64,000 nucleotides of DNA, taken from assembly GCA_016788665.1 (NCBI GenBank), contig JAEUSF010000002.1:73387-137386 (forward strand), read 5' to 3'. The DNA comes from Candidatus Doudnabacteria bacterium (GTDB lineage Bacteria > Patescibacteriota > Doudnabacteria > UBA920). The translations under genes were made by a program, and so were the position numbers. Under the pieces are notes generated by a model, which saw only the letters and a program-made list of their open reading frames with translations, did no database searches and was not told the DNA's origin. How positions within the stretch are numbered: the first letter of the stretch is position 1; every line of letters begins with the position of its first letter. Below are positions 7,438 through 60,004 of this stretch, piece after piece.

Positions 7438-7500
7438 ATTGTTTATGCAAATAATTTTTTAAGTTTTTTATTTTCCCAATTATAACATATATTTAACATC

Positions 7501-7529
7501 TTGACAAGACCCCTTAAAATAGGTATAAT
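7501..7529 (+). promoter_or_regulatory. Perfect sigma70 consensus promoter TTGACA-17-TATAAT, followed by AGGAGG RBS at 7549-7554
   Basis: TTGACA at 7501-7506, a 17-nt spacer and TATAAT at 7524-7529. AGGAGG lies 8 nt before the ATG at 7563. Confidence 0.6.
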
Positions 7530-7562
7530 TTACAACACTATCCTAGCTAGGAGGATCCTCGA

Positions 7563-8033
7563 ATGAGGAAACTTGTTCTCTGTTTGTTTCTCACGGTCGC
7601 TGCAAACGCAGCTACCGTAAACATCTACCCCACGCTCGACTGCACCGTCGGAGGCACTTCGGCAGCCACAACAGGGCTGTGTGCAAATCCCAACGGTCCG
7701 ACCACAGTTGGGTTTGTTGTTGTAACCAACGACATGCTCAACCCCAGCGACCAGAACGACTGGGTCCAGGTCCTGGAGTTTCCGAATGCCGGTGGCGGCG
7801 TTGCCACCAACTTTCGACTCTACTCCGATCCGTTGACGTTTCCGAGCTTCGGCTCGGCGTCAACTACGGTGCCGTTTGCTACCCTATTTTCTGTATACAA
7901 CCCCGCGCAGGGGTTTGTGTACAACATCTACAACCCGCCTACCAACGGGGGCGGTAATGTTCCCGAGTCCGGCACCATGCTTATGGTTGCCGGAGGACTC
8001 GCAGGAATTGTTGCAGTCCGCCGAAAGGGCTGA
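7563..8033 (+). CDS. GC-rich secreted protein with a PEP-CTERM-like C-terminal sorting signal (VPESG-TM-RRKG)
   Basis: Signal peptide MRKLVLCLFLTVAANAA. C-terminus ...GNVPESGTMLMVAGGLAGIVAVRRKG. The ORF is about 58% GC against an AT-rich background. Confidence 0.55.
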   Translation: MRKLVLCLFLTVAANAATVNIYPTLDCTVGGTSAATTGLCANPNGPTTVGFVVVTNDMLNPSDQNDWVQVLEFPNAGGGVATNFRLYSDPLTFPSFGSASTTVPFATLFSVYNPAQGFVYNIYNPPTNGGGNVPESGTMLMVAGGLAGIVAVRRKG

Positions 8034-8046
8034 CGAAACAACAACC

Positions 8047-8090
8047 AAAAGGCCGACGAACCTACCAGTTCGCCGGCCTATTTTTTTATT
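8047..8090. terminator. Bidirectional intrinsic terminator between converging genes
   Basis: An A-run, an 11-bp GC-rich stem (GGCCGACGAAC / GTTCGCCGGCC with one mismatch) and a T7 run. Confidence 0.6.
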
Positions 8091-8099
8091 ATTTTTAAA

Positions 8100-8642: not shown

Positions 8643-8684
8643 AAATTTATTTATGACGTGTCTAAAAAATACTGCATAAATTTT

Positions 8685-18980: not shown

Positions 18981-19510
18981 AGATATCGCTGATTAATCGC
19001 TGATAGTTACGCAGATAGACCGCTGATTTTTCTGCCCTACTTCAGCAATTGTTGTAATTCAGCTCAACTTTAGTATTTAACAAAAGCTAGTAGCCATTCT
19101 ACCACGAAAGTCAATACAGGTTCAAGAGTTAGGGCAAAAACTTCATGAAAATAAAAAAACCGCGCTTTTTTAAAACACGGCATGAACCTTAGGCTTTGAG
19201 GGAAAAAATTACGGCGACTTGCCGCTGATTTGTTCCCCACCAGCAAAAAGCTTTAACTTCCACCTCCCGGTAGTTCCTCCGCGCCAACTCGGCGCAAAGG
19301 GACGGAAGTATTTCAGGCACTTCGGCCTGATATGAAAAGCTAAGCTCGAACAGCTCGAGGCGGTCCCACGGGGTCCCTTCTACCCAACCTTCTACCCACC
19401 TCACGACGCAACGAGGAAGCCGGTTTTTCCTTTCAACAAACTCCTCTTTAGTCATGCACAAAAGTTAGCAAATTATAGACACCAAGTCAACATAAAAGTA
19501 TAATTAATTC

Positions 19511-26012: not shown

Positions 26013-26749
26013 GATGGGAGTCTTCTGGAAGACTCCCATCTTTTTTATTCGTCAATTAACAATTTTTCTAAATCTTTTCGCTCCCTGATTCTCTCGTAAC
26101 TATTTTCTACAAAACTTTCATAGCCATCGCTCGATTGCATATCTAAGATAAACTTTTTTTCACATAAAGTACCATTCCGCACACCCAAATAATCTAAATA
26201 GCTGCTCCATTGATACTTTTTAAGGCTCTCAACAATGCCTGAAACTTTTGGGTTCTGGTGTATATAAGCCGAAAGCCAAGCTAATTGGGAATCATTTTTT
26301 ATCAGCACTGACTTGAAAGCATCTTGGAAAAGATGCCCCACTCTACCATACTTCTTGTTAAAATATTTACTATAGCTGGTACAAATTTTAGAAACTAACT
26401 TACTTATTTCTGTATCTCCGTTTTGTCGGATTAATAAATGAAAATGGTTTGGCATTAAGCAATAACACAATAGTGTAAAAGCATCTGCTGGCAAACTTTT
26501 TCTTATATAGGAACCTCCAAGGTTTTTTTCGGCAAACGGCATGTTTTTTAAGGGAAATAAATTTTCTTTTAACCTGTAAAGAAAAAACTTAAAGTCATCT
26601 TCATCTTTAAAAATATCCATTTTCCCTACGCCACGGTTAAAAACATGATAACAAGCTTTAGGCGCAAAGTTTTTATAATCCCTATTGTTCATAGCCTACT
26701 GCTTATGCTTTAAACAAGTTTTGATGGGAGTCTTCTGGAAGACTCCCAT
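26013..26749. mobile_element. IS200/IS605-family minimal element (or RAYT/REP-like unit): Y1 HUH transposase flanked by identical 28-nt hairpins
   Basis: GATGGGAGTCTTCTGGAAGACTCCCATC occurs at 26013-26040 and again at 26722-26749 in the same orientation. The two copies flank only the tnpA gene, for a total of about 737 bp. Confidence 0.7.
26045..26692 (-). CDS. tnpA: IS200/IS605-family Y1 (HUH) transposase TnpA / REP-associated tyrosine transposase
   Basis: CYHVFNRG near the N-terminus, HUH motif LMPNHFHLL, and catalytic Tyr-containing helix (SYSKYFNKKY). Confidence 0.8.
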   Translation of the reverse strand: MNNRDYKNFAPKACYHVFNRGVGKMDIFKDEDDFKFFLYRLKENLFPLKNMPFAEKNLGGSYIRKSLPADAFTLLCYCLMPNHFHLLIRQNGDTEISKLVSKICTSYSKYFNKKYGRVGHLFQDAFKSVLIKNDSQLAWLSAYIHQNPKVSGIVESLKKYQWSSYLDYLGVRNGTLCEKKFILDMQSSDGYESFVENSYERIRERKDLEKLLIDE

Positions 26750-27772: not shown

Positions 27773-28162
27773 TTGTTTGAAAAAGTCACAGGAGGATGCT
27801 CCATGTTTACTTGCGTTCTGTGGTTTTCCAAGTTTGTGGAAGTTTCAAGGCACTTCGATAAACTCGTAGCACAAGGCAACTGGGAAGGCATAACTATGCA
27901 TACCCCAAACCAAATGTGGCAACCTCAACAAGTTGGCCGCATGATGCTTATACCGGTTAAGCGAGACATTTTGCCAAAAAACTTCAATGCACGCCAGCAA
28001 CTTCCGATTTTAAAAATCTCTTTTTCTGACCAGTCACCTGTCGCAATAATTAATACGCTGCGCCACTTTGGCGCAATCCGTATCAGCGACACAGGGGTCA
28101 TAATCGACGAAGAATGGCTGGCTAAACTTGTAGGCACCATTGCGCCAAAAGCCGCAGCCTAA
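27773..28162 (+). CDS. Hypothetical protein (probable start ATG at 27803 after AGGAGGA RBS)
   Basis: 119-129 aa with no recognisable motifs. RBS AGGAGGA 7 nt upstream of the ATG. It begins immediately after the trpS terminator hairpin (27736-27772). Confidence 0.35.
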   Translation: MFEKVTGGCSMFTCVLWFSKFVEVSRHFDKLVAQGNWEGITMHTPNQMWQPQQVGRMMLIPVKRDILPKNFNARQQLPILKISFSDQSPVAIINTLRHFGAIRISDTGVIIDEEWLAKLVGTIAPKAAA

Positions 28163-28191
28163 CACTTTCAGACTGTTTACAAACGGTCTTT

Positions 28192-29616
28192 TTATTTTTT
28201 CACCAGCTCTACAACTTCTTTTATTTTATCTTCCAAAAGCTCCTTTGCATTGGCTTCCACATTTATACGAAGCAAACTTTCCGTATTGCTCTTTCTAACA
28301 TTAAACCGCCAATTTGGATAATTAAAACTTAAGCCGTCTATTTCTTCTATTTTAGAATCGCTGTACTTTTGCTTAAAAGCCGACAAGGCAGCAGCTAAAT
28401 TTGCCACTTTAAAATTCATTTCTTCTGAAATAAAAAACTTTTCCCTTAGAGTTTTTAAAATCTCCGAAAATTTTACACCTTCACCCGTGGAGGACAAAAT
28501 ATCCAGCACAATAAACAAGGGAAACAATCCGTTGTCCAAATAAAAAGTATCTTTAAAATAATAGTGTCCAGAAGTTTCGCTACCAAATACTGCACCTTCT
28601 TTTATCATTCTTTCTTTTATGAAACTATGACCAGCTTTTGTTTGGACTGGCACTCCCCCATTTTTCTCCACCATATAGTCTATAACCCTAACTACACGGG
28701 TATCGTGCACAATTTTTCCACCTGGAAACTTTTGTAAATAATACTCAGAAACTAAAGCATTCACATATGCCGGGGTGACAAAATCACCGTTTTCGTCAAA
28801 GAAAAAGCATCTATCTGCATCAGCATCCCACGCCACGCCCAAATCTGCCCCATGCTCTTTTAAAGCGGCAATTATTTCTGCTCTGTTTTCAGGTATAAGC
28901 GGATCCGGCCTGCCTAAAGGCAACGGGAAATTGCCGTCCAAACCTTCGTATACAACTTTTACGAAATTTGTTTTGGGAAAATATTTTTTTAAATATTCTA
29001 CCGACAAATTCCCCATGCCAAAATTCGTATTTGCAACTATTTTAAAGTTTTTAAACTTAGAAGTATCAAAATTGGAAATTACAAACTCAAAATACTCTTC
29101 CTTTATATCTTTCTGTATTACTGTCCCTGATTTGGAATTTGTTATTTGTAATTTGGAATTTGCATTTACCAAATCCCTGATTTGGTAAATGCCAGTATCT
29201 CCCGAAATAGGTTTACCTTTTTTCCCGACCAATTTTAAACCACCATACTCTTTTGGGTTATGACTAGCAGTAATTTGTATACCACCGTCTACGTCTAAAG
29301 TAGCGGCTGCATAGTAAAGCATATCGGTGGAAACCAAGCCCAAATCTACAACATTAACTCCAGCTTCTGTAAGACCCCGTATAACCGCCTCTGTAAACTC
29401 TTCTCCACTAAGCCTCATGTCGTGACCAACCACAATAGTTAATCCTTGATCCCCGCCTTGATCGACAGTTCGAGCTGGTTTAACCCTTGCTCCTTCACTC
29501 TCAGAAAGAAACTTAACATATGCCTGAGCAATTTTATAAACCACTTCAGTGTTAATTTGGCTCGGGTAAACTCCCCTTATGTCATAAGCTTTAAATATAG
29601 ATGTGTCGATATTCAT
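28192..29616 (-). CDS. Phosphoglucomutase/phosphomannomutase family (alpha-D-phosphohexomutase)
   Basis: Active-site loop TASHNPKEYGG, Mg-binding DADADR and sugar-binding GSETSGH motifs. Confidence 0.85.
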   Translation of the reverse strand: MNIDTSIFKAYDIRGVYPSQINTEVVYKIAQAYVKFLSESEGARVKPARTVDQGGDQGLTIVVGHDMRLSGEEFTEAVIRGLTEAGVNVVDLGLVSTDMLYYAAATLDVDGGIQITASHNPKEYGGLKLVGKKGKPISGDTGIYQIRDLVNANSKLQITNSKSGTVIQKDIKEEYFEFVISNFDTSKFKNFKIVANTNFGMGNLSVEYLKKYFPKTNFVKVVYEGLDGNFPLPLGRPDPLIPENRAEIIAALKEHGADLGVAWDADADRCFFFDENGDFVTPAYVNALVSEYYLQKFPGGKIVHDTRVVRVIDYMVEKNGGVPVQTKAGHSFIKERMIKEGAVFGSETSGHYYFKDTFYLDNGLFPLFIVLDILSSTGEGVKFSEILKTLREKFFISEEMNFKVANLAAALSAFKQKYSDSKIEEIDGLSFNYPNWRFNVRKSNTESLLRINVEANAKELLEDKIKEVVELVKK

Positions 29617-29716
29617 ATAAGATATTTTAGTATAAGTATTGTAACTTAAGCGTTAAAAATAAAAAAGACCTCGTTTTAAAAACAAGGTCAAAGAAAGAAA
29701 AGTCACATCTTCGTTA

Positions 29717-30022
29717 TTACCGACGACGCTCCCTCACCATTCTGTGGCGAATACTCCGAAAGCGATTGCGGGCGGCAAAGAGTTGTCCGACCGTTGTGAC
29801 TACGGTAAAGCACAACTGTCCGGTTACGAAGTTAATACCATAGCAGCCGCCCTGCAGGACTTCGACCCGGGTCGCTTTTTGTGCCAGACGATCAATAACC
29901 CGCTCGTCGGGTAAATCGTTAGGCACCTCGCTCATAAGCGCCGACACCCTCCTCAAGTCCCCCATAGCGACCGAGTCCAGATCCTTCTGTGTGGACCCCA
30001 AACACAATGTCTTGTGTATCAC
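29717..30022 (-). CDS. GC-rich hypothetical protein, Arg-rich C-terminus; start overlaps the stop of the upstream gene (ATGA)
   Basis: 101 aa, about 55% GC. No recognisable motif. Translationally coupled to 30019..30306. Confidence 0.4.
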   Translation of the reverse strand: MIHKTLCLGSTQKDLDSVAMGDLRRVSALMSEVPNDLPDERVIDRLAQKATRVEVLQGGCYGINFVTGQLCFTVVTTVGQLFAARNRFRSIRHRMVRERRR

Positions 30023-30342
30023 CCAAGCCTCCTTAAGTTGTAGCCCATAACACGAACTTCCAACTCGACCATACCACGCTTGCTGACCCGAACGTCAACT
30101 TCGCCTAAGGGAATATTCAAGCGGTTACTGGACGAACCACTCAGGGTCAGCGCCCCGCTCCTCAAGTCCTGTTGAAACGCATGGACCAAATCCATGCGCT
30201 CCTCCGCAGACAAGTCATCAACCTCACGCCTAGGTCGCGTCTTTTTCTTCCGTTGCACACAGCTCTTAGAGAGCACGACTTCCTGTTCGAAGCCAAAGAT
30301 CTGCATGATCCCTCCAAGGAACATGGTATAAAACAAAAACAT
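30019..30342 (-). CDS. GC-rich hypothetical basic protein (probable start 30306, MQIFGFEQE..., after GGAGGG RBS)
   Basis: About 95 aa. Own promoter TTGACA-17-TAAAAT (complement of 30341-30369). The preceding gene ends with an intrinsic terminator. Confidence 0.4.
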   Translation of the reverse strand: MFLFYTMFLGGIMQIFGFEQEVVLSKSCVQRKKKTRPRREVDDLSAEERMDLVHAFQQDLRSGALTLSGSSSNRLNIPLGEVDVRVSKRGMVELEVRVMGYNLRRLG

Positions 30343-30427
30343 TTTAATGAACTTTGTCTAAAATGTCAACACTAAATAAAAAAGCGGCAATTTTAACCGC
30401 TTAAGAAAATAAACTCTACTTAAAAAG

Positions 30428-30799
30428 CTAGTTTAAAGTGGCGTACCGAAAGCTGTATAAGGTGTCGACTACCACCACAGTCCTTTCGTCAACCCTGATC
30501 TTCACACAAATACCATCCGAATTACGACCCGGGCGCTCCTGAACCATCTGCGTTCTAAGAGGACGAAACATCCAATTGTTCTGGGCGGCGGACAACATCC
30601 ACCGGTACGCTTCCTCATCAGTCCGCGCCAGAGCCAAGGCAGCCTGCGTGCGCATAGCCTTTAACCACTCTTTAAAATCGGGGAGCTCTTTGGCAGCCCT
30701 CCCAACATCCAACTTTTCCAACTCCGCCGTCGTCATCAACCCTCCTCTAAGGAAATAAATATCAAAGCAAATACTACTCTTTTGGCAGAACAAGGTCAA
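30428..30799 (-). CDS. GC-rich hypothetical protein (probable start 30736, MTTAELEKLD..., after AGGAGGG RBS)
   Basis: About 102 aa. Promoter TTGACC-17-TAGTAT (complement of 30773-30801). Terminator hairpin AAGCGGTTAAAATTGCCGCTT plus T-run downstream. Confidence 0.4.
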   Translation of the reverse strand: MTLFCQKSSICFDIYFLRGGLMTTAELEKLDVGRAAKELPDFKEWLKAMRTQAALALARTDEEAYRWMLSAAQNNWMFRPLRTQMVQERPGRNSDGICVKIRVDERTVVVVDTLYSFRYATLN

Positions 30800-30973
30800 T
30801 AGCAGCCTATTGGCTAAAGTGCCAAAATAAAGTAAAATAAGCTACAGAATAATAACATAATACGGATCAACGGATTTTAATACCGATGATACTAATAATA
30901 CAGATGTGCGAGCATCTGCAACCGTTAGCATTATCTGAATCATCCGCATATATCTGTATATCGGCATCACATT

Positions 30974-32071: not shown

Positions 32072-32167
32072 ATTGCTCAAATAAACGCAGACAGCTAAGC
32101 AGAAATAACGCTGAAAATAAAATACCCTGTCCAATTTGTTTCGGACAGGGTTTTACGTTTTGCTTAC

Positions 32168-32722
32168 CTAATACGGCACAACCGCGAACATGCAGCTGGG
32201 CCGAAATTTCTCGTAGACGCTTTTAAGTCGAAGCTTCTTCAAGCCCTCGTTCCCGCTCTCCTCGGTGGTCTCGGTGGTATACCCGTCCAGGTACGGATAA
32301 TACACTCCGTGGTTTTTGATAACTATCTTGTCTAGTGCCGCGACCGAACCAGATGGGGGTGCATGTCCGGACCGAGCCAGCGCCAACAACTCGTAGACTG
32401 TCGCCGGCCTGTACCGAACCTTTTCGAACTTTTCCAGCAAAGTCTCTGCGGGAAGCTCTAATCCTAGCCTCACCACCACAATCTTTACTTGGTAAGACTT
32501 AGGCGGCGGTGAGGAGAAAAGAACACCCGGAAAAGTCAAAAACCTATTATACTCGTTCAATCCCACCTCGTTCACCTGCTCCAAGAGTGGGCGGGCGAAG
32601 ACCTGAACCTCGGTCTCCAAAATAAGCCCAGCCGACTCTGCGGCATATGGCTTTTCGTACTTGCCGCAGGAAGCCAAAAAAATCAACATCAATACGCCCA
32701 ACATCTGCAAAAACATTGTCAC
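32168..32722 (-). CDS. GC-rich putative lipoprotein, unknown function
   Basis: Signal peptide with lipobox LASC. 184 aa, about 55% GC. -35 TTGACT (complement of 32778-32783) and AAGGAG RBS. Bidirectional terminator at 32117-32160. Confidence 0.45.
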   Translation of the reverse strand: MTMFLQMLGVLMLIFLASCGKYEKPYAAESAGLILETEVQVFARPLLEQVNEVGLNEYNRFLTFPGVLFSSPPPKSYQVKIVVVRLGLELPAETLLEKFEKVRYRPATVYELLALARSGHAPPSGSVAALDKIVIKNHGVYYPYLDGYTTETTEESGNEGLKKLRLKSVYEKFRPSCMFAVVPY

Positions 32723-32927
32723 TCCTTACCTTATACGACCAACAGATTTGCTAAATCATGCCAAAAAACTGCTCAAAAGTCAATACATACTATCTAGACA
32801 GAATGCCCAATAAATGCTAGAATTTAACAAATTAATCATATTCCTTGCCTATTTTACAGGTAAGGATAGAAAGCCCTATACCAGTCATTCTAAAGAATTT
32901 CCGATATAGGACGAAAGGAATCTTTCT

Positions 32928-34092: not shown

Positions 34093-34335
34093 ATGAGACC
34101 TAATTACAACAATAACAACACTCAACCCCAGGTCAAAAAACAGTGCTACTTTTGTTCCAACAAAATGACCACCGTTGACTACAAGGACACCCAGACCCTG
34201 CGCCGGTTTATGACCCCACATGCCAAAATCATGTCCCATAACCGCACAGGCACCTGCCCTAAACACCAGCGCATGGTAACCTTGGCTTTAAAGCGAGCCA
34301 GACATATGGCCCTATTGCCATTTGTTTCCGCATAA
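34093..34335 (+). CDS. rpsR: 30S ribosomal protein S18
   Basis: CYFCSNK...DYKD..LRRFM...I......GTC.KHQR.V..A.KRAR is the S18 signature. Confidence 0.9.
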   Translation: MRPNYNNNNTQPQVKKQCYFCSNKMTTVDYKDTQTLRRFMTPHAKIMSHNRTGTCPKHQRMVTLALKRARHMALLPFVSA

Positions 34336-41258: not shown

Positions 41259-41287
41259 TTGACAAACCTAAAGACGAAGTTTATAAT
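41259..41287 (+). promoter_or_regulatory. Perfect sigma70 consensus promoter TTGACA-17-TATAAT
   Basis: TTGACA at 41259-41264, a 17-nt spacer and TATAAT at 41282-41287. Followed by an 83-nt structured 5' UTR and an AAGGA RBS. Confidence 0.55.
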
Positions 41288-41376
41288 CACAGGTCCCCTG
41301 CTTGTTTGTGGGGGAAACAGAACATTAACAAACGCCTCACACTCTGAGGCAATAAGGAGGGCGGAAAGGAAATCCT

Positions 41377-41646
41377 ATGTCCTTTTTGTTCCTGATGGTC
41401 GTGTTTGCCATGGCCTCTCTTGCACATGCCGCCGGCGCCACTATGCGCCTGAGCAGTTTCTTGAGAAAGCAAAGCCTAAAAAAACAAACACTCCCAAAAG
41501 CAGTTACGGCCCTTATGGCCGCCGCGCAGCTTTCAGAGCTAGCAAGCCTTATAGAACACGCTTCGTTCGTGCATTTTGTTGGAGCAGCGATGGTTCTGGT
41601 AGTCTTGTTAGCTGTTAAGTCAGGAACCGAAGAACATGGGTTGTAG
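41377..41646 (+). CDS. GC-rich small (89 aa) Ala/Leu-rich protein with a signal peptide and a C-terminal hydrophobic anchor
   Basis: N-terminal MSFLFLMVVFAMASLAHAAGA and C-terminal FVGAAMVLVVLLAVKSGTEEHGL. Flanked by the consensus promoter and the 41711-41752 terminator. Confidence 0.4.
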   Translation: MSFLFLMVVFAMASLAHAAGATMRLSSFLRKQSLKKQTLPKAVTALMAAAQLSELASLIEHASFVHFVGAAMVLVVLLAVKSGTEEHGL

Positions 41647-41710
41647 GCAAAACCGCCTCCCCAAAAACCCAAGGGTTTCCTGATACCATGTCACGCGAGT
41701 GACAGAATCT

Positions 41711-41752
41711 AAAATCCCCGAGAGCTTACGCTTTTCGGGGATTTTCTATTTT
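41711..41752 (+). terminator. Intrinsic terminator
   Basis: AAAATCCCCGA / TCGGGGATTTT 11-bp stem followed by a T-rich tract. Confidence 0.6.
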
Positions 41753-43868: not shown

Positions 43869-43891
43869 TATAATAAACTTTTGTAATTAGA

Positions 43892-45526
43892 TTAATTTTT
43901 ATTCTGCTCTGCCTCAAGTCGGATACGCAGCTCATCAAATTTTTTTTCTAATTCCGAAACCTGATCATCATGTTTGTTTCTTATAAACGTACTAGTTTCG
44001 TAATACTTTTCCTCTACTAGTTTCCTCTTTTCTTTGACTTCTTCCCAACCTACTTTTCCAGACCTATATACATCGGTTATATTATCCCGCGCCTTAATCT
44101 GATCATCCTTTGCTTTTTGGGATTCTTTTATATATTCCTGTCTTATTGCCCAAAATGCCTCATTTCGATTATTCCTCAAATTAAAACTTAGGTCTCCGCC
44201 ACCGAATCTAAAAAATAAACTTCCTTGCGAACCTAACTGAACCTGTCTTGTATTTTTTTCGAACCACTCATGCTTGCTTTCTAGGGAAGTCCCGGCAGGA
44301 AAATAGGCATCATCGCTTAAACGTTTTATTAACTGCTCAAATTCATAAGCCAACCCCTGCCTGTCCACAAAGGTTATTAGGTCATTCCCATTCACTAAAG
44401 CAAAATATATGTCTATATGCTCCTTACTTCCCACCTCATTGAATTTTACCAACTTTGACCAACTAAAATCCTGAATCCCTTCGTCGGTTAAAACAATTAC
44501 CGCTCGTTGCGAACCTGCATTTTCCGGAAGCAGTTTTTTTTCCAATACTTGATCCAACGAATTAAACAGTTGTTCATTTCCACCACTTAGCCTCAAATTC
44601 GACAGCGTCTCTTCTAGCTTTTCTGAAGGAACTTTCTTATAACTATCCAAGTCAGCACCTCTTTCAAAGGTAACAACATGGTTGGTGTCTGAACTAAAGT
44701 CTGAAGGCATTTGTTTAAACGCTTCACCAAACTTTTTACCCAAACGACCATAATCGTCCGACATAGATTCGCTCCGATCCGCCAAAATGGTAATTTTGTC
44801 ATAACTGGCCATAATTTCTACCAACTTAGCGTACTGAACTTCCACTTCGTTATCTCCCGGTAATTCAAAAGCCACCCGCGCATAACGCGCTTGGTCGTAT
44901 AATCCAGACAACTGCTCCCCAGAAAGTTTTTTTATTTCTTCTGGCTTATACCTTTCTTTCGTCGCCGGATTAATTAACTGAGTAATTGGTAAAAAACCTA
45001 CTCCCCAAGAACCTGCGGCTATCCGTTTGGTATAAGTCTTACGCCGAAACTGGCGCAGTGCGGTTGGATCTATCTGAGAGGAAAACTTATATGTCTCAAT
45101 AATATTCCGAAGCAACCCGTCCAAAGCTTTAAGTCTTTCGGTACTTAAACCTTCATTTCCCTTTTCCCATTTTTTTGTTGGCCTTTCGTCACTAGAAACC
45201 TCAATGCTTATACGACTTGAATTTAGCTTTGTAAACTTTTCCTTGTTATTATATTCTTCCAAAAATTTTTCAATTTTAGTTCTAATTTCTACCTCAGCCC
45301 TCCCGTTTAATTCAGCCGCGTCGACAGGGAAGGAGTTAGCAAAATCAAAATTTTCTAAAGCTTGAGTCTTTTTTGTCTCAGCCTTTTCACCCACCAAACC
45401 AGATTTAAAGTCCGAGCAACCCGGTATTAACAAGCTAGCCCCTAAGACCACCCACCTAGCAAGCCCAAAAGCCTTTTTTTTATACTCTTCGCCTCTAAAA
45501 CCCGATTCAAAACTTCTTTCCGACAT
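43892..45526 (-). CDS. Putative lipoprotein with a von Willebrand factor A (vWA) domain
   Basis: N-terminal signal with Cys (LLIPGCSD). MIDAS motif DxSxS (ADRSESMS) and VIVLTDEG. Native-type extended -10 TGGTAATAT upstream and no SD. Flanked by the about 90-bp direct repeats. Confidence 0.6.
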   Translation of the reverse strand: MSERSFESGFRGEEYKKKAFGLARWVVLGASLLIPGCSDFKSGLVGEKAETKKTQALENFDFANSFPVDAAELNGRAEVEIRTKIEKFLEEYNNKEKFTKLNSSRISIEVSSDERPTKKWEKGNEGLSTERLKALDGLLRNIIETYKFSSQIDPTALRQFRRKTYTKRIAAGSWGVGFLPITQLINPATKERYKPEEIKKLSGEQLSGLYDQARYARVAFELPGDNEVEVQYAKLVEIMASYDKITILADRSESMSDDYGRLGKKFGEAFKQMPSDFSSDTNHVVTFERGADLDSYKKVPSEKLEETLSNLRLSGGNEQLFNSLDQVLEKKLLPENAGSQRAVIVLTDEGIQDFSWSKLVKFNEVGSKEHIDIYFALVNGNDLITFVDRQGLAYEFEQLIKRLSDDAYFPAGTSLESKHEWFEKNTRQVQLGSQGSLFFRFGGGDLSFNLRNNRNEAFWAIRQEYIKESQKAKDDQIKARDNITDVYRSGKVGWEEVKEKRKLVEEKYYETSTFIRNKHDDQVSELEKKFDELRIRLEAEQNKN

Positions 45527-45695: not shown

Positions 45696-46098
45696 ATTAC
45701 TACGCAGCTTGGTTTTCCGCAGGGGCGGCAACTGGCGCTGTCTGGGTTTCCGGAGCCGGGCTAACTGGTTCCGTAGTGGTAGCATCTGTCTTTTGTTCGT
45801 CTGACATAACTGTATTCCTTTCGTATCCCGCTTCGGCAGACCCGAAGTTAACAGGACTACCTTATCTGAGCGAGACCATATTAGGGTAAATTGGCCCAGT
45901 AAGATATTTAGCCAGTGACTCATTATAACACTAACCAGCAAGAATAGATAGCTAGGAAACTACTGAAAACTGTCCTCCCCATTTACAAAAAATTTTCTCA
46001 TAAAAGTTCATTAATAGTTTTTGTAACTAGGATATTATATTGACACAATTAGTTAGGTACCTTACTATTATATATAAATCTAATTCATACGAACTCGT

Positions 46099-46539
46099 AT
46101 GCAAAAACTTGAATTAAGCCCATTAAGAAAACTCTTTCATACTGTCATACTTCTTTCCAAAAAGGATATGGTACGCAGATTCGCCGAAACGAATATTCAT
46201 CTTTCACAACTTCAGTTCTGGGTATTGGTAACCATTCGCGAACACCCGACTACCTTAAATGAAATAGCAAAAAAATTTGGTATAAAGCCGCCTTCCCTAA
46301 CACCGGTTGTAAGAATGCTAGAAAAAACCGGCTACCTGCAAAAAAAACCCGACGCCCATGACGGCAGAAAGTTCCAGCTAATAAATACAAAAAAAGGTGA
46401 ACAGGTCTTAAACAAATTACCCCTAAATACTTCAAAAGATGCGCTGAATGCCGCCTTCGAAAAACTTACGTCTACTAAACAAAGACAGCTTCTAAAACTA
46501 CTAGAGGAATTAATTTCAAATTTTGAATACCATGAATAA
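46099..46539 (+). CDS. MarR-family transcriptional regulator
   Basis: Winged-HTH segment LSQLQFWVLVTIREHPTTLNEIAKKFGIKPPSLTPVVRMLEKTGYL. Directly upstream of the ABC exporter pair. Confidence 0.85.
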   Translation: MQKLELSPLRKLFHTVILLSKKDMVRRFAETNIHLSQLQFWVLVTIREHPTTLNEIAKKFGIKPPSLTPVVRMLEKTGYLQKKPDAHDGRKFQLINTKKGEQVLNKLPLNTSKDALNAAFEKLTSTKQRQLLKLLEELISNFEYHE

Positions 46540-50009: not shown

Positions 50010-50100
50010 AACTCCTGACACTCTCAAATAAAAGCGCTCTATAAAGGAGCGCTTTTATTGTTTACCTACACGTCTTTATTTTTACCGCGGCACCAACCTG

Positions 50101-51192: not shown

Positions 51193-51386
51193 TTGTATAT
51201 TATAGCTAAGTTTGTCTTTAAAGAATAGAAAATATAAAAAAATACCAAAAACCTTTTCTTTTGTATTTGTAAAACAAAACTAAACTGGTCGTAAGTTAAT
51301 AAAAGAAAATATGGTCCTCTGCTACAGTCTGCTATAACACATAAAAAAAAGCCTGCCTCTAAGACAGACTCGCTGCTAACGTACGA

Positions 51387-51965
51387 CTACCGCCCAACCA
51401 ACTCCCGGTTTTCGGGAACCGTCGCATGCGGCGGCGTGACCACAGGAAGACGCGGTCCAGCCTGTGCGCTAAAACGCGTGCCTACACCACACATCCAAAC
51501 CATAAGACGCGCCAGCACAGACGCCCGCTGCGCCACCTGCACCGCCGGCGGCATGCTCAGTTCCACCCTTTCGCTCGCACCGGCGAGCGACAAAACACGT
51601 ACGCACTGGTTCTCGTTAAGGCGCTGCAGAAGCAGCTCCCGTCCGTTGTCAAACCGAACCCCGTCGCGGTGAATGTAGGCGTCGACCCCCAACTGAGTGA
51701 AAGTCACCAGCTCAGTCTCCCTGACAGCAAATTCTTTCCGAAGCCGCACGGGGATATCCTCCAACATCAACTGCGCACCGGGTGGAATGCACACAGCGCA
51801 CAACATATGGGCACTGTGGTTATTGCCCTGCTCAACCACATCGCGGAATGCAGGGTCACCGGACGAGACCATCCCCATTGACCCGCCCGGAAAGCGGACC
51901 GTTACCAGCGTCTCGCCTTCATTAGCAAGGCGATTTTTGTGTGCGTGCAAGCTATAGTCGCACAT
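51387..51965 (-). CDS. GC-rich hypothetical protein (N-terminus MCDYSLHAHKNRLA...)
   Basis: 192 aa, about 60% GC. Promoter TTGACC-17-TAGACT (complement of 52022-52050) and AAAAGAGGA RBS. No assignable domain. Confidence 0.45.
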   Translation of the reverse strand: MCDYSLHAHKNRLANEGETLVTVRFPGGSMGMVSSGDPAFRDVVEQGNNHSAHMLCAVCIPPGAQLMLEDIPVRLRKEFAVRETELVTFTQLGVDAYIHRDGVRFDNGRELLLQRLNENQCVRVLSLAGASERVELSMPPAVQVAQRASVLARLMVWMCGVGTRFSAQAGPRLPVVTPPHATVPENRELVGR

Positions 51966-52099
51966 TGTGATCCTCTTTTCTACATGTAGTAAAGCCCCTC
52001 AGAAAGGAGCTTGATGCAGAAAGTCTACACAAAAAAGTAGCACTGGTCAACTCTATACATAAAAAACCTCTTTTAAATATTTAAAAGAGGTTTTTTGAA

Positions 52100-52903: not shown

Positions 52904-52972
52904 ACCGATTTCTACTCAAATAATGTTTAATTCATTATAACAAATATTCTGTTTTACTTATTACACAACCTA

Positions 52973-53899
52973 TTGATAAAACAGTCAGTTAAGTATAGAA
53001 TTATATCCTGTAAGTTTTCAATCCCAGAGGGAGGACCGATGAACTTTTCCACATACCTTGAGGTACTGTTGTCCGCCAAAGAAGCGGCGGCAAAAATCCC
53101 CTTGGGGGTCTACGACCCCATTGTCTGGCCTGAGCTAAGACCAGACGCGCCGACAGCAATGCTGTTGTCCGCGCATCCAGACGACGAATGGCTGTCCTTT
53201 ATGCCGCTGGGTTTGCGGCTACGGCGAGAAGGCTACAACGTTGTTGTGGTCGCTGTTACCTTAGGGCGGCCCGAACAGCACGCGCGACGCCTTAGCGAAC
53301 TAACAGCTGCCTGCCGCTACGGCGGCATGGAACTGTGCGTTCCGGGACCCGAAGGCAAAGGCCTACGGGACCAAATCAGAAACGAAAATGGGGAAACATT
53401 TTCCGGCGCTGTAGAAGAGGTGCTGAAACTAACCAACCGCTACATGCCCAAAGTGTTCATAACACACCACGCGGAAGACGGACACCGGGACCACAAAAGC
53501 TGCAATCGTTTGGCCAAAATTGCGACTGCCTGCAGCAAACAGCACACATTCCTCGTCGAAACGGAATACTGGCAAGACATTGGCGAACCCAACTGCCAAC
53601 TCGAAGTAGCATACCTAGACGTAGTCCGCGTTATGGAGGGTGTCAGTTTCCACAAGGGGGAACTGGAAAGGAACCCTTACCACTTAACCTACCCTCTACT
53701 CGGTATGCTGAATGCCCAGTACGTAGAACGCGTTGTGGGGTTTGGCAACCCCGCGGCGAAATTTCAGTTCTCGGTAATACTGAAGCTGACGGTGTTTAAA
53801 ATGGGCCGCCAGTACGACTACAAACACCCTAGCCAACTCAGCACGGACCAGTCAGTGTCCATGCTCTTTCCGGAAAAACCAACCACAACGTCAGTTTAA
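52973..53899 (+). CDS. GC-rich PIG-L/LmbE-family N-acetylglucosaminyl deacetylase (probable start 53039 after GAGGGAGG RBS)
   Basis: LLSAHPDDE motif and DGHRDH (HxDH) metal-binding motif. Promoter TTGATA-17-TAGAAT at 52973-53001. About 55% GC. Confidence 0.7.
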   Translation: MIKQSVKYRIISCKFSIPEGGPMNFSTYLEVLLSAKEAAAKIPLGVYDPIVWPELRPDAPTAMLLSAHPDDEWLSFMPLGLRLRREGYNVVVVAVTLGRPEQHARRLSELTAACRYGGMELCVPGPEGKGLRDQIRNENGETFSGAVEEVLKLTNRYMPKVFITHHAEDGHRDHKSCNRLAKIATACSKQHTFLVETEYWQDIGEPNCQLEVAYLDVVRVMEGVSFHKGELERNPYHLTYPLLGMLNAQYVERVVGFGNPAAKFQFSVILKLTVFKMGRQYDYKHPSQLSTDQSVSMLFPEKPTTTSV

Positions 53900-54195
53900 A
53901 CAACTGCCGTTTTTTTATTAAACGAAGATTGAGATACATGAAGACTGACTCGCGATTTAATCCAATCTTTGTGTGTTCTTGTCTGTGGTCGCTCAGCTGT
54001 TAGCAAGCACCTCTCTTTTAGTTCAATGTATAAAGTTTCAATATGCCTCCAATGCTTTTGCTGTTCTAAATCAAAAAGCTTAGAATCTTCATCCTTAAAA
54101 ATCAAACTAAAAACACCATTCCGGGTGTGTCCCTCGACTCGGCTGCACTCGCTCGGGACAAAATAAAATACCCCATACATTGGGGTATTTTATTT

Positions 54196-54270
54196 TGGTA
54201 GCGCTACGGAGAATCGAACTCCGATTTAGTGGATGAAAACCACTTGTCCTAACCATTAGACGATAGCGCC
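54196..54270 (-). tRNA. tRNA-Glu (anticodon TTC)
   Basis: On the minus strand: acceptor GGCGCTA, anticodon stem AGTGG/CCACT with loop TTTTCAT (U33, TTC, A37), T arm GGAGTTCGATTCTCC, discriminator A and CCA. Confidence 0.8.
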
Positions 54271-54409
54271 AAAAGATTGAATTAAGAAGTAGGAATAAAG
54301 ATTAGGAATAAAACCACACTTAACTTTTGAAATTTTAACATAATTGAGCTTTTTTTTCAAGGGCTCAGTTAAGGCCAAATTTGCATTTTCCCAACAAAAA
54401 AGAGAAGCT

Positions 54410-54916: not shown

Positions 54917-54927
54917 GTTTATTCTAT

Positions 54928-55431: not shown

Positions 55432-55590
55432 TGGCTTAAAAAAACAAAGCCCAACCCGACAGTTAATCTGCAGTGTTGAGCTTCGAGAGCTACTATATAA
55501 CTAGAGTAACATATATTTTTTTTATTGACAATTTTAAACTCAAACTATTTTAAAAAAAGACCTTCGCTGAACGAAAGTCTTTTTTAAAAA

Positions 55591-55956: not shown

Positions 55957-56045
55957 AAGTTTATTTAATAATAGCCTTTAAATACTAATTTATCCATTAA
56001 ATTTTTGCAAATTAATTGCAATATTTTGCGTACCCTTACATTTAA

Positions 56046-56951
56046 GTGTATTATTTGCTTATGACTTGGCTTTTTTTTGCACTCCTAGCGCCCTTAATTT
56101 GGGCAATTACCAACATAATAGACAAATTTGTTTTGTCTAAGATTACCGACGACTACTGGATACCGGCAATCTTTTTTTCTTTTGCAGGCCTAGCTACAGG
56201 ACTAACTATTTTTGTTTTTAAAGGTTACGAACCAGTTACACCAGTAGTTATATTTACAGCATTAGGAGCCGGCTCTGCCTACTTTTTTGCCGAGCTTTAC
56301 TATTTTAAGGCTGCTCAAAAAGAAGAAATTTCACGAGTCATCTCACTTGTCTACCTGGACCCTCTTTTTACGGCAATTTTTGCAGCCATATTTTTAAAAG
56401 AGTTTTTTTCTTTTACCAGCTACGTTGGCGTGGCCTGCATGACCTTTGGAGCCTTCTTAATATCTTACAATTTTGAATCGGGTTGGAAAAATAAAAACAT
56501 AGCCTGGCTGGCAGTTATATCCGCTGCTTTATTTGGGGCCTCAAATATATTAAGTGACTTGTTTGTAACTGAACAAAACGCCTGGACTATTTTCGCATTT
56601 ATACGGCTTGGCACTTTCCTAAGCACTTTACCCTGGACTCTGCACAAGCGTCAGAAAATTTTAAATTTTATTCGACACCGAACACAAAACTCCGCTCTGA
56701 TATTTTTAAACAGCTTAATGGTAGTCTTTGGCACTTTACTCTTTTTATTTGCCCTCTCAAAAGGCTTTGCCACATTCACCGCTTCTTTAGCCGCACTGCA
56801 GCCTTTATTCGTCCTAATCATTGTCTGGTTTTTAAGTCAATTTTTTCCTCACATTTTAAAAGAAAATTTGAACAAAAAAACTTTTTTGCAAAAGCTGGTG
56901 GCCGCAATAATTTTGCTTGTGGGAGCTTTTCTTCTCCATTCCCAAATTTAA
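56046..56951 (+). CDS. EamA/DMT-family transporter
   Basis: 301 aa, 10 TM segments, duplicated EamA-type halves. Confidence 0.7.
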   Translation: MYYLLMTWLFFALLAPLIWAITNIIDKFVLSKITDDYWIPAIFFSFAGLATGLTIFVFKGYEPVTPVVIFTALGAGSAYFFAELYYFKAAQKEEISRVISLVYLDPLFTAIFAAIFLKEFFSFTSYVGVACMTFGAFLISYNFESGWKNKNIAWLAVISAALFGASNILSDLFVTEQNAWTIFAFIRLGTFLSTLPWTLHKRQKILNFIRHRTQNSALIFLNSLMVVFGTLLFLFALSKGFATFTASLAALQPLFVLIIVWFLSQFFPHILKENLNKKTFLQKLVAAIILLVGAFLLHSQI

Positions 56952-56991
56952 AAAACCCTGCTCCATAAAAAGGAGCAGGGTTTTTTAAATA

Positions 56992-57669
56992 CTATTTTTT
57001 TCGCTTGTCTGAAAGTATAAGTCCGTCCTTTAACTCCAAAACTCTTTCTGACATTTCGGCAAACTCTTTTTCATGAGTTACCATTACTATAGTCTGCCCG
57101 GCTTTATGAAGGTCTAAAAAAACTTTTAAAATTTCCCGTGAAGTGGTAGTGTCTAAGTTTGCTGTCGGCTCGTCGGCAAACAAAATTTTTGGGTCATGCG
57201 CAATAGCCCTAGCTATAGAAACTCTTTGTTGTTGACCGCCAGATAATTGACTGGGCAAATTATCAGCTTTTTCCTTCAAACCAACTCTTTCCAAATTCCT
57301 CATTGCCTTAGCATATGCTGCATCTGTCTCCATATCTTGCATAAGCATTGGTAAAACAACATTTTCCAAAGCAGTTAGCTCGGGCATAAGAGCATAATCC
57401 TGAAAAACATATCCCAAAGAATTTAGGCGAAACAAAGTTCTCTGGTCGCTTGGCAAAGCACTTACTTCGATATTGTCTATGAAAATCTGGCCTTGGGTGG
57501 GATGGTCTAAAAGAGAAAGCTGATACATTAAAGTGGACTTCCCCGCACCGGAAGGTCCAATTATAGAAACAAACTCACCAGATTCTATATTTAGGTCTAT
57601 ACCCTTAAGCACCTGGGTTTCCAACTCCCCACTCATATAAGTTTTTACTATATTATTTGCTTTTATCAT
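56992..57669 (-). CDS. ABC transporter ATP-binding protein (MacB/LolD/FtsE-type)
   Basis: Walker A GPSGAGKSTL, signature LSGGQQQRVSIARA and Walker B ILFADEPT. Confidence 0.9.
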   Translation of the reverse strand: MIKANNIVKTYMSGELETQVLKGIDLNIESGEFVSIIGPSGAGKSTLMYQLSLLDHPTQGQIFIDNIEVSALPSDQRTLFRLNSLGYVFQDYALMPELTALENVVLPMLMQDMETDAAYAKAMRNLERVGLKEKADNLPSQLSGGQQQRVSIARAIAHDPKILFADEPTANLDTTTSREILKVFLDLHKAGQTIVMVTHEKEFAEMSERVLELKDGLILSDKRKK

Positions 57670-57745
57670 TTTACTCCGAATGAATAGATCCGTCTTTGAC
57701 GGAAACCATAATTTTGAACTTTGATATTTACACTTTCAACTTATG

Positions 57746-59032
57746 CTACCTTCCCAATATTGAATCTAAAGTATTTTTCTTAACAATTATCCTAGCCGGT
57801 ATAAAACCCGCTAAAAGAGTTATTAGCATTAAAACTCCTGCCCTAGCCAAAGAACCGCTTACGCTTGCCGCTAAAATGCCGTCACTAAATGGAAAGTCTA
57901 AAGGATTCTGGTCGAAATATGGCTTCAAAAACAAAAACACAAGTCCAAAACCTAAAATACTACCAGTTAGTCCGTAAAAAATAGCTTGAAATATGTACGC
58001 AGTTTCTATAGCGCGAGCACTTATGCCTATGCCTTTTAAAATCCCTATATACTTTCTTCTTGTTACAGCATTAATAAAAATAACTATAAAAATAGTTATC
58101 GAGGCAACCACCAACGCAATACCTCCTATTACATTACCTAAGACTCCGAAAGTACTCTCTATGTCACGCAAAAAAGAAGGTATGGCTTCTTTATAGGTTT
58201 GCACTCTAACCTTACTTAAGTCTGTTTGGGACTTAAGAGCAAAAAGAATTTCACCTGTATCGGGAACAGAAGTTTTTATAGCTATCTCTTGAACATTAAG
58301 GTCGATATTTTGCGTAAGTTTTCTGAGCTCAGAATCCAACACAAAAGAACGCTGAGACACCTGGTCCACTTTGCTTTTTATTATACCCTTAACTATAAGT
58401 TCTTTACTTATTTGCACAGCCGAACCATTCTGCGAACCATTTATAGTTAGCCTAACCTTGTCCCCCACCTTAACACCTCTTAAAATAGTAAAACCTGGAA
58501 AATTAGCATCGGCAAAATTCGAATACTCTTTTATAAGACTGGCGCCAACTAGAATATAACCCTCGTCGCCAGGCTCCAAAGCCTTGCCTTCTAAAACTAA
58601 ATCCGAAAGTCCAGTCACCTTCTCTTCGTCTTCCGGATCTATACCAACAACAGAACCGCCATTTTCGTTAGGAGACTCTTTGCCCGACGGATTCTGTCCC
58701 AAATCTGCTCTTATTTTTCCCGACACGACAGTTCTTGCTGAAACCGCCTCGACTCCACCCAGGCTCTTAGCTAAAGAAACCAAAGTTTGGCTTTTTTCTA
58801 TGTTGGCAATACGCTCCTGAGGAGTTATAAGTATGTCGCCCGAATATCTATCCCTAAACTGTTCATAAGAGCCTGTTAAAAGTCCAACCAAAATACCATT
58901 TACCACGACCAAGTTTAAAAAGGTCAAAGTCATTATAAAAATAATAAGCACAGTAGTGCCTATGCTCGCACGTTTTATCTGCCTAAAGGCTAAAAAAAAT
59001 CCCACCTGGAGGGATATAAGATATTTTTTCAT
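57746..59032 (-). CDS. ABC transporter permease, FtsX/MacB-like with a large extracytoplasmic domain
   Basis: N-terminal TM segment, a periplasmic domain of about 230 aa and a C-terminal 3-TM FtsX module. Adjacent to the ATPase gene. Confidence 0.8.
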   Translation of the reverse strand: MKKYLISLQVGFFLAFRQIKRASIGTTVLIIFIMTLTFLNLVVVNGILVGLLTGSYEQFRDRYSGDILITPQERIANIEKSQTLVSLAKSLGGVEAVSARTVVSGKIRADLGQNPSGKESPNENGGSVVGIDPEDEEKVTGLSDLVLEGKALEPGDEGYILVGASLIKEYSNFADANFPGFTILRGVKVGDKVRLTINGSQNGSAVQISKELIVKGIIKSKVDQVSQRSFVLDSELRKLTQNIDLNVQEIAIKTSVPDTGEILFALKSQTDLSKVRVQTYKEAIPSFLRDIESTFGVLGNVIGGIALVVASITIFIVIFINAVTRRKYIGILKGIGISARAIETAYIFQAIFYGLTGSILGFGLVFLFLKPYFDQNPLDFPFSDGILAASVSGSLARAGVLMLITLLAGFIPARIIVKKNTLDSILGR

Positions 59033-59102
59033 ATGCTTATTTTAAAGGAAAACCCGAATTTAGTCCAATAAAAAAGCGACCGTTTTACTGGTCGCGTCGC
59101 GG

Positions 59103-59858
59103 CTATTGCGCCACGACTTTTTGTTGCCGGTTTAGCTCCCTGCGGGTCCCGCACGCAGCTACAAGCAGCTCCCGCGCTTTACCAAATTCCCCATTTTTGA
59201 AAAGATTACGAGCTTCTTGGGTTATCCGTTGCGATTCAGCCATGAAGTCGGGAGGGAACTCTGGCGTAATTCGCAGTAGATCTGCGCACAGCTCCTCTAT
59301 CTTCCGACTGCGAATCTCGTACTGGCCTGTACTTTGCACGCCCCCACTCACGTGCCTGCCTCTTCGCTCAGCGAGCCTGCGGGATCGCAAACTTTCGGAC
59401 ATTTTCCTTGTATGCAACCTCTCCTGCCGAATCAATGCCTCTACTTGCTGCGCAAGCCAGCAGTCCATGTCCTTTGCCAATAAGAATAGCAAGAACGATG
59501 GCTTTTTGACACCCTCCTCAGCAGCTTCCCTTACAAACCGGCTGTAAAGCCAAACCAGCCGACGAAGTGCGACAAGGAACAGCGTAAAGCAAAGAACCAA
59601 CGAGACTATCAAACTGTCTCGGCCGTCCCGCCACTTAGCAAGCCACCCATAGGTATTTTGCCAAGCAATCGTCAGACACTCTGCACCACATTCCTTTTGG
59701 TGCTTTAGAGCTTGATCCACCAAGCCCTTGTATATGTTCTGTGCCAATAAGGCAAGAGAGCTTTCAACCAGCGGGGTAAAAACTGCAATCCCCGCCGCCA
59801 GACCAAGAGCCACAGACATCACGATCACGGCAACGCACCTTTGACGGAAAATCTCCAT
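59103..59858 (-). CDS. GC-rich hypothetical membrane protein (2 TM)
   Basis: 251 aa, about 57% GC. Promoter TTGATA-17-TAAAAT (complement of 59932-59960) and GAAGGAGG RBS. Bidirectional terminator at 59961-59995. Confidence 0.4.
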   Translation of the reverse strand: MEIFRQRCVAVIVMSVALGLAAGIAVFTPLVESSLALLAQNIYKGLVDQALKHQKECGAECLTIAWQNTYGWLAKWRDGRDSLIVSLVLCFTLFLVALRRLVWLYSRFVREAAEEGVKKPSFLLFLLAKDMDCWLAQQVEALIRQERLHTRKMSESLRSRRLAERRGRHVSGGVQSTGQYEIRSRKIEELCADLLRITPEFPPDFMAESQRITQEARNLFKNGEFGKARELLVAACGTRRELNRQQKVVAQ

Positions 59859-60004
59859 ACCGCCTCCTTCAAATCAGAAAGTCTAGGGCAACGCATGGTG
59901 GCCCTCATTACCCGCATTTGGATAATAGAAGATTTTAACAGTTTTACAGAAAATTATCAATATAAAACCCCCAAAGAATTTCTTTGGGGGGTTTTATACA
60001 ACAC

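Follow-up and report, generated by a model that had tools for sequence, protein, structure and literature searches.

Along a stretch of 64,000 nucleotides from a Candidatus Doudnabacteria bacterium (contig JAEUSF010000002.1, positions 73,387 to 137,386; hereafter the window), GC-rich gene cassettes lie scattered among AT-rich native genes. Ten open reading frames (ORFs) in eight or nine transcription units make up the set. Their products comprise two PEP-CTERM-like secreted proteins, a lipoprotein, membrane proteins, a PIG-L deacetylase and several small uncharacterised proteins; besides PIG-L, seven of them are exact matches to proteins of the MBL80299xx series (locus tags JNN11_01xxx). The native genes encode a type IV pilus, a sortase and an LPVTG substrate, uvrA and uvrC, ychF, rpsF-ssb-rpsR, RNase J, tryptophanyl-tRNA synthetase (TrpRS), rsgA, PGM and an IS200-like transposase. 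This content fits the assignment of the window to the Candidate Phyla Radiation (CPR, or Patescibacteria).

Composition and content of the GC-rich cassettes

The window as a whole has 40.3% GC. Its native set of 52 ORFs has a GC content of 0.394±0.029 and a GC content at third codon positions (GC3) of 0.363±0.048, from which ten ORFs named in a first-pass annotation of the same DNA depart sharply (GC 0.52-0.60, GC3 0.56-0.67, GC3 z-scores of 4.1-6.5). The non-uniformity claimed by that annotation is thus clear once native and cassette genes are measured, but its figure of 55-62% GC is too high for most of them: the true range is 50-60%. The first and second codon positions are shifted as well, not GC3 alone, and cassette proteins are enriched in Ala, Arg, Val and Pro and depleted in Ile, Lys and Asn. 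A two-state hidden Markov model applied to the raw sequence recovers the same GC-rich segments, plus one patch at 6263-6528 (61% GC). We rejected this patch as a cassette, as it encodes a Gly/Ser/Pro linker within the native LPVTG gene, 6190-7437. The linker directly precedes the LPVTG sortase signal, and the adjacent gene, 5422-6159, is the sortase. An Rfam scan of the window matched two tRNAs only, hence the GC-rich patches are not known structured RNAs.

A single native gene has a cassette-like GC3, of 0.60: 34093-34335, located after ssb and identified as rpsR (S18) by translation only. It has neither a Shine-Dalgarno (SD) site nor other foreign features, and codon selection in a highly expressed gene may explain its composition.

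Cassette 1 occupies 7501-8087 on the forward strand: a promoter at 7501-7529, an SD site (TAGGAGG, 7548-7554), an ORF of 156 aa at 7563-8033 (GC.565, GC3.64) and a terminator at 8050-8087. Its protein begins with a signal peptide and ends in a PEP-CTERM-like tail, VPESG-TM-RRKG (TM, transmembrane helix). It scores 18.4 on TIGR02595 (cut-off 16) and 20.0 on PF07589 (gathering threshold 20.7), and is named PEP-CTERM sorting domain-containing protein at NCBI (MBL8029896.1). At 7479-7529, the divergent -35 boxes of the native gene 6190-7437 (TTGTCA) and of cassette 1 (TTGACA) overlap back to back in the palindrome CTTGACAAG, which places the cassette 1 promoter in native AT-rich DNA.

Cassette 2 (12400-13240, reverse strand) has its promoter at 13212-13240, the same TAGGAGG site, an ORF at 12497-13117 (GC.58, GC3.61) and a terminator at 12400-12434. 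The ORF encodes 206 aa counted from Met14, the annotated start being at 13156, and its product again combines a signal peptide with a PEP-CTERM-like tail, TPEPA-TM-KAKGG. The PF07589 score of 15.5 lies below the gathering threshold of 20.7, with the TPEPA motif visible, and the N-terminus is weakly similar to that of cassette 1 (E 0.013). A terminator-like hairpin with a T-run stands in the leader at 13178-13201, between promoter and SD site. It may be the terminator of the upstream gene 13269-13574, in which case the promoter match of cassette 2 is unused, or else an attenuator.

Both proteins share the signal peptide, C-terminal P-E-P/S motif, hydrophobic helix and basic tail of PEP-CTERM/exosortase substrates (TIGR02595, PF07589), but only one of the two passes a curated threshold, and only one such threshold. 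Such signals are a feature of diderm exosortase systems; the native surface machinery of the window, with its sortase and LPVTG substrate, is by contrast monoderm in style. No exosortase was found among about 20 native window proteins scanned against Pfam; a sortase is present instead.

Cassette 3 (19153-19455, reverse strand) lies in the divergent gap between uvrC and uvrA. It consists of an 88-aa ORF at 19189-19455 (GC.52, GC3.57) and a terminator at 19153-19181, with no SD site. The first-pass annotation had listed it as a possible extra member together with two others, and it is indeed a compositional outlier. The second, on the forward strand at 27803-28193, is a weaker or older candidate: its ORF of 119 aa (27803-28162; GC.46, GC3.48, z 2.3) has an AGGAGG site and a terminator at 28170-28193, but begins 50 nt downstream of TrpRS, has no convincing promoter of its own and probably rides on the TrpRS transcript. 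The third, 45702-45807 on the reverse strand, was discarded, being only a 35-aa ORF rich in Thr, Pro and Ala, at most a tiny ORF or an uncharacterised RNA. It lies in the gap between 43892-45526 and 46099-46539, preceded by a leader of some 100 nt that contains a TTATAAT box (45702-45960, reverse strand); the region has no Rfam match.

Cassettes 4 and 5 are two reverse-strand units within 29661-30799. In one, a promoter at 30771-30799 precedes a 102-aa ORF at 30428-30736 (GC.53, GC3.64) and a terminator at 30378-30402. In the other, a promoter at 30341-30369 serves two overlapping ORFs, 30019-30306 (GC.53, GC3.64) and 29717-30022 (GC.55, GC3.64), followed by a terminator at 29661-29689. All three genes have GGAGG sites, and homologues of them were found only in sister genomes (P0123, P0125, P0126, P0128 and P0132). 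Cassette 6 (32119-32783, reverse strand; promoter 32755-32783, SD site, terminator 32119-32151) encodes a predicted lipoprotein of 182 aa with the lipobox LASC (32168-32716; GC.52, GC3.66). Cassette 7, a weaker outlier, occupies 41259-41745 on the forward strand, with a promoter at 41259-41287, an 89-nt leader, an ORF at 41377-41646 (GC.50, GC3.52, z 3.3) and a terminator at 41711-41745. Its 89-aa product, annotated on this strand as MBL8029930.1, combines a signal peptide with a TM helix at the C-terminus.

Cassette 8 (51343-52050, reverse strand) has a promoter at 52022-52050, a 56-nt leader, the SD site AAGAGGA, a 192-aa ORF at 51387-51965 (GC.60, GC3.67) and a terminator at 51343-51369. 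The product belongs to an uncharacterised family that we call 'MCDYSLH', which has no match in Pfam or NCBIfam and whose profile finds none among PDB sequences. A single-sequence AlphaFold model of it is poor (pLDDT 47). A LysR regulator follows genes of the family in 11 of some 30 homologue loci examined, which is uninformative for function.

Cassette 9 (52973-53899, forward strand) comprises a promoter at 52973-53001, the SD site GGGAGG and an ORF of 286 aa at 53039-53899 (GC.54, GC3.62); unlike in the other units, no clear terminator was found. It encodes a PIG-L/LmbE deacetylase, from the N-acetylglucosaminyl deacetylases related to BshB and MshB, with 59.9 bits on PF02585 (threshold 28.2; E 4.7e-16) and the metal-binding motif AHPDDE, readable in the translation as SAHPDDEW. 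From Met23 on, it is identical to the PIG-L family deacetylase listed by NCBI for Candidatus Doudnabacteria bacterium (P0001). It falls well short of the equivalog cut-offs for BshB1, MshB and Mca, so we assign it no substrate. Cassette 10 (59070-59960, reverse strand), finally, has a promoter at 59932-59960, the SD site GAAGGAGG, an ORF of 251 aa at 59103-59858 (GC.52, GC3.56) and a terminator at 59070-59095; it encodes a membrane protein whose C-terminal module is conserved.

Expression signals in cassettes and native genes

In nine units, a -35 and a -10 element are spaced by 17 nt, as the first-pass annotation had stated. Two are perfect TTGACA-17-TATAAT sites (7501-7529 and 41259-41287), and single mismatches occur at 13212-13240 (TTGACT-17-TATAAT) and 30341-30369 (TTGACA-17-TAAAAT). 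Two mismatches are present at 52973-53001 (TTGATA-17-TAGAAT) and 59932-59960 (TTGATA-17-TAAAAT), and three at 30771-30799 (TTGACC-17-TAGTAT), 32755-32783 (TTGACT-17-CATGAT) and 52022-52050 (TTGACC-17-TAGACT). On average, cassette promoters have 2.0 mismatches, against 3.2 for native and 3.6 for shuffled upstream regions. A three-mismatch site by itself is near chance, as 40% of shuffles reach that level; the one at 52022-52050, however, has a conserved counterpart in a relative. Promoters of the cassette type serve native genes as well. The units are found between native transcription units, and the earlier statement that none is embedded in a native operon stands, with the probable exception of 27803-28162.

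Defining a strong SD site as an anti-SD duplex with dG <= -6, we find one in 10 of 12 cassette genes versus 3 of 51 native genes (Fisher p = 1e-7); the background rate within the GC-rich coding sequence of the cassettes is 16%. Here the first-pass annotation was right in general and erred on 29717-30022, which it had excluded and which has AAGGAGG. Cassette leaders are 33-94 nt long, and dedicated terminators, each a hairpin with a T-run, follow 10 of 11 units, in line with its claim. The native genes, described as poor in SD sites with starts close behind a -10 box, are just that: in seven of them (starts at 19511, 26775, 35090, 50101, 56061, 57746 and 60760), TATAAT stands exactly 6 nt before the ATG. 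Together with the rarity of SD sites, this geometry suggests that leaderless native mRNAs are widespread in this CPR lineage. Our literature search found no paper describing leaderless mRNAs in Patescibacteria.

The pattern belongs to the clade and not to the window alone: in related CPR contigs, where our ORF calls are crude, SD sites precede 12 of 20 GC3-outlier ORFs but 81 of 666 others (12%; Fisher p = 1e-6). Examples of such SD-led outliers are L119 2693-2971, L144 9032-9319, L114 301-1920, L101 853-1716 and L108 2470-3276. The outlier ORFs of AT-rich CPR contigs include ACP-like genes and signal-peptide proteins, and one outlier protein bears a planctomycete-type secretion motif, ESLERREMLA, at its N-terminus.

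Synteny, replacement and probable exchange among sister lineages

A sister metagenome-assembled genome (MAG), GCA_964523855.1, represented by contigs L003/L081, L082 and L083, shows synteny with the window. Identity between the native proteins of the two is 58-94%, while synonymous sites are saturated (dS from 1.3 upward, fourfold-site identity.3-.46). The deposited names are 'uncultured Candidatus Saccharibacteria' for the sister MAG and Candidatus Doudnabacteria for that of the window; in view of the synteny and protein identity, one of the two labels is probably loose.

Orthologues of 19189, 27803, 29717, 30019, 30428, 51387 and 59103 occupy the same loci in the sister MAG and are still GC-rich, with GC3 of.45-.61. 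The orthologue of 19189 (P0127; 69% aa identity, GC3.45) adjoins uvrC in L083, and that of 27803 (76% identity, GC3.49) is found in L082. Next to FtsX in L081 stands the orthologue of 59103 (P0124), only 40% identical with a GC3 of.57, whereas FtsX itself is 94% identical. A homologue of the cassette 6 lipoprotein (P0122; 88% aa) lies between ychF and rpsF in contig L165. In view of the seven shared loci, recent acquisition of each cassette by this genome alone is not supported. Wherever dN/dS could be measured it is below 0.3, so the cassette products are under selection.

With UvrA as query, we retrieved 80 metagenome loci of more distant relatives, whose UvrA is 58-83% identical. The closer ones keep the order TrpRS-RNase J-SBP-uvrC/uvrA, a few with pilB directly after uvrA, and none of the 80 has a homologue of any cassette. 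In particular, 12497 and 19189 have none in relatives that preserve uvrC-uvrA and, in places, uvrA-pilB synteny: the cassette 2 gene is missing in L085 and L098, where uvrA abuts pilB, and the uvrC-uvrA gap, of 180-1,770 bp, is occupied by unrelated small ORFs. With seven genes shared by the sister MAG and none by distant relatives, acquisition took place at the base of a sub-clade, or the genes spread within it. Orthologues at the same loci with the same composition, named by the first-pass annotation as evidence against foreign cassettes, do therefore exist for seven genes; a foreign origin is not thereby refuted, given the syntenic distant relatives devoid of any cassette homologue.

At the PIG-L locus a resident gene has been replaced. 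The reverse-strand segment 53896-54270, abutting the end of PIG-L, holds the N-terminal remnant of a HEPN_AbiU2 gene (53896-54180), a 94-aa ORF that keeps about the first 70 codons, and a tRNA-Glu gene (54196-54270). After the same tRNA-Glu, contig L081 has an intact HEPN_AbiU2 gene of 496 aa (14865-16355) and two more genes, and no PIG-L at the corresponding locus. An intact gene in the sister versus a stub beside PIG-L marks a replacement event. The HEPN_AbiU2 gene is of the abortive-infection-like type.

The 29661-30799 locus is a recombination mosaic of three genomes (L164 1-1119, L082 950-2100 and window 29650-30900). For 30428, the window resembles L082 (fourfold-site identity.77), with L164 at only about 45% protein identity. 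For 30019, L164 and L082 are identical at the nucleotide level while their neighbours differ by 35-55%. For 29717, the window resembles L164 (fourfold-site identity.77) and not L082 (.38). At cassette 6, 32168 and its homologue in L165 share.88 of protein positions, below the flanking S6, SSB and YchF (.91-.95), but.73 of fourfold sites, above the flanks (.46-.58); this higher dN with lower dS fits younger alleles spread by recombination under weaker constraint. At cassette 8, the stretch that the window and L003 have in common opens precisely with the -35 hexamer; the upstream neighbours differ, and both hexamers are conserved around a variable spacer. The portable unit thus includes its promoter.

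The genomes differ in further genes. An IS200-like Y1 transposase gene (26045-26692; PF01797, E 1e-11) between RNase J and TrpRS is not at this position in L082, and a homologue stands at the corresponding position in the more distant L102. The EamA transporter gene 56046-56951 and the SnoaL-like and ArsR pair at 60005-60700 are missing at the corresponding positions in L081. Both the transporter gene and the pair have a native, AT-rich composition, so the flexible genome is not solely GC-rich.

Origin and meaning of the cassettes

A genome-collection scan with 51387-51965 returned 526 relatives. The best come from Bryobacterales/Solibacter (69-70% identity), followed by other Acidobacteriota (40-55%) and Bradyrhizobium (about 33%). 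A tree built by neighbour joining places the window protein, together with the orthologue from the sister genome, inside Acidobacteriota beside two Bryobacterales sequences, with the alphaproteobacterial Bradyrhizobium, Xanthobacteraceae and Pseudolabrys as outer group. GC3 falls from about.75 in the donor group to.67 in the window and.61 in the sister genome, as partial amelioration would give. For this gene, sequence comparison thus directly shows a foreign origin, from a Bryobacterales-type acidobacterium and not from the high-GC Proteobacteria that the first-pass annotation expected as donors. A second contig labelled 'Saccharibacteria' that bears a homologue (L006) is too short to judge.

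PIG-L likely has a foreign origin too, probably in a GC-richer CPR lineage. Its nearest non-self homologues are 46, 44 and 42% identical and are found on CPR-like contigs of about 55% GC with ribosomal and other core genes, where PIG-L is compositionally native; one of these relatives is named Kaiserbacteria. Six further cassette proteins are orphans: joined into one query and searched with phmmer against 1.84 billion cluster representatives, they gave 11 matches in total, all to themselves or to sister genomes.

In our judgement, the GC-rich units are quite probably horizontally acquired islets, similar to phage morons, that are shared and exchanged within a sub-clade of CPR Doudnabacteria. 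Each islet would be a self-contained unit, in which a sigma-70-type promoter and a leader with a strong SD site precede one or two foreign ORFs closed by an intrinsic terminator, set between native transcription units of an AT-rich, largely SD-independent chromosome. Donors would be mixed and belong to the GC-rich surrounding community: Bryobacterales-type Acidobacteriota gave one cassette and a GC-richer CPR lineage probably another, the remainder being fast-evolving orphans without an assigned source. Entry may have occurred at or near the base of the small sub-clade, or the islets may have spread within it, by uptake and illegitimate or homology-assisted recombination. Purifying selection would then retain them and homologous recombination reshuffle them among sister lineages, which would account for both their GC-richness and their mosaic alleles. 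The promoters are presumably functional, and SD sites would be needed by cassette mRNAs that, unlike native ones, have leaders. The first-pass suggestion of foreign cassettes accordingly holds for composition and separate transcription, with origin direct for 51387 and likely for PIG-L. It is a case of ordinary horizontal gene transfer, an unusually clean example and not a new kind of genetic element. Nor are the cassettes one functional system: the collective function that had been sought for them dissolves into heterogeneous products.

Several points weigh against this account. Seven cassette genes are syntenic and GC-rich in a genome whose synonymous sites are saturated relative to the window, which simple neutral amelioration does not predict. 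An extra assumption is needed, either recent exchange between lineages, which we prefer, or selection on composition, which may also be the answer. The 40% identity of the two 59103 orthologues could mean that the gene is old and evolves very fast, or that it was replaced independently. A donor is demonstrated for one cassette only; for PIG-L, the direction of transfer derives from composition and patchiness, not from a tree, and 7563, 12497 (both PEP-CTERM-like) and 41377 are unplaced. Promoters and leaderless starts are both purely sequence-based predictions. None of the cassettes is flanked by an integrase gene, a target-site duplication or a terminal repeat, the repeat search having returned terminators only, and PIG-L alone has a tRNA neighbour, tRNA-Glu. 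Such mobility signatures (integrase, repeats, tRNA target) are common in islets but not obligatory.

Alternatively, the cassettes could be native, vertically inherited genes whose GC-rich codons and SD sites are kept by selection, for instance as a separately regulated or highly translated class. This would explain why the seven orthologues at the same loci stay GC-rich despite saturated native dS and why silent sites of some cassettes are better conserved than their flanks, and rpsR is a native gene with a comparable GC3 of.60. We nonetheless consider it unlikely: mosaic alleles explain the low dS without silent-site selection, GC1, GC2 and amino-acid composition are shifted besides GC3, 51387 nests in Acidobacteriota, PIG-L replaces a HEPN gene found in the sister genome, and syntenic distant relatives have no cassette homologue at all.

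Very unlikely, in our estimate, is an origin as phage morons or decayed prophage cargo, with temperate phages of either the CPR bacterium or its host as carriers. A moron is an independent promoter-ORF-terminator unit inserted between resident genes, deviant in composition and horizontally spread (PMC3594210). The cassettes match this concept of Juhala and Hendrix in anatomy, in GC contrast with their neighbours and in spread, and PIG-L adjoins a tRNA gene. However, they stand in a cellular chromosome and not in a phage or prophage, flanked by housekeeping genes (uvrA/uvrC, ychF, rpsF, ssb, RNase J, TrpRS, PGM, type IV pilus, rsgA); the window has no phage structural or integrase genes and no att-like repeats, and searches of IMG/VR (viral) and PLSDB (plasmid) with the two PEP-CTERM cassettes found no relatives. 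Chimeric assembly of GC-rich reads, or deliberate insertion, as raised by the first-pass annotation, of synthetic expression cassettes, might be read into the near-consensus promoters and the BamHI sites beside two start codons, but the cassettes are not engineered: native-cassette junctions, five in all, are reproduced by three independent assemblies (NCBI JNN11, GCA_964523855.1 and the Logan assembly of SRR12901019) and GGATCC occurs at chance frequency (7 observed vs 5.9 expected), which excludes such an origin, while native genes share the promoter type and cassette orthologues are 12-60% diverged at the protein level.

Small foreign inserts with atypical composition as their hallmark are documented in the streamlined genomes of Patescibacteria (mSystems 2025, PMC12455944), where, as here, donors include Patescibacteria and other phyla and membrane, surface and uncharacterised genes are prominent. 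Most transfers in that survey are from Patescibacteria to Patescibacteria, with Omnitrophota and Bacteroidota as outside donors, whereas one donor here is Bryobacterales; our islets differ further in being single transcription units with full expression signals among SD-poor, apparently leaderless native genes. Integron cassettes are also single-ORF mobile units of varied, mostly uncharacterised function, but they are promoterless, have attC sites and are arrayed at an attI/intI platform. The present units are scattered over 52 kb, with their own promoters and no shared repeats.

More tentatively, the cassettes might belong to a pool, specific to this lineage and subject to recombination, of small, secreted and surface proteins that an episymbiont draws from the genes of its partners. 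The Bryobacterales gene and the diderm-style PEP-CTERM proteins would then point to Acidobacteriota as physical host of this soil clade of Doudnabacteria, and two initiation regimes, a leaderless or SD-independent core and an SD-led acquired set, would keep the latter separately regulated and GC-rich long after transfer. Taken jointly, we hold these propositions to be rather unlikely.

The hosts and gene flow of soil CPR bacteria are little known, and the acquired islets, one of them traced to Bryobacterales, offer a testable lead on the neighbours or hosts of this Doudnabacteria lineage. The split between SD-less, probably leaderless native genes and SD-led acquired ones provides a practical marker by which transferred genes can be found in genomes of this kind. 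Nature has here also set up an experiment on the fate of imported mRNAs at a ribosome for which SD pairing is rare. Finally, high GC in shared cassettes, combined with saturated synonymous divergence and mosaic alleles, suggests that sister CPR lineages actively exchange accessory genes.

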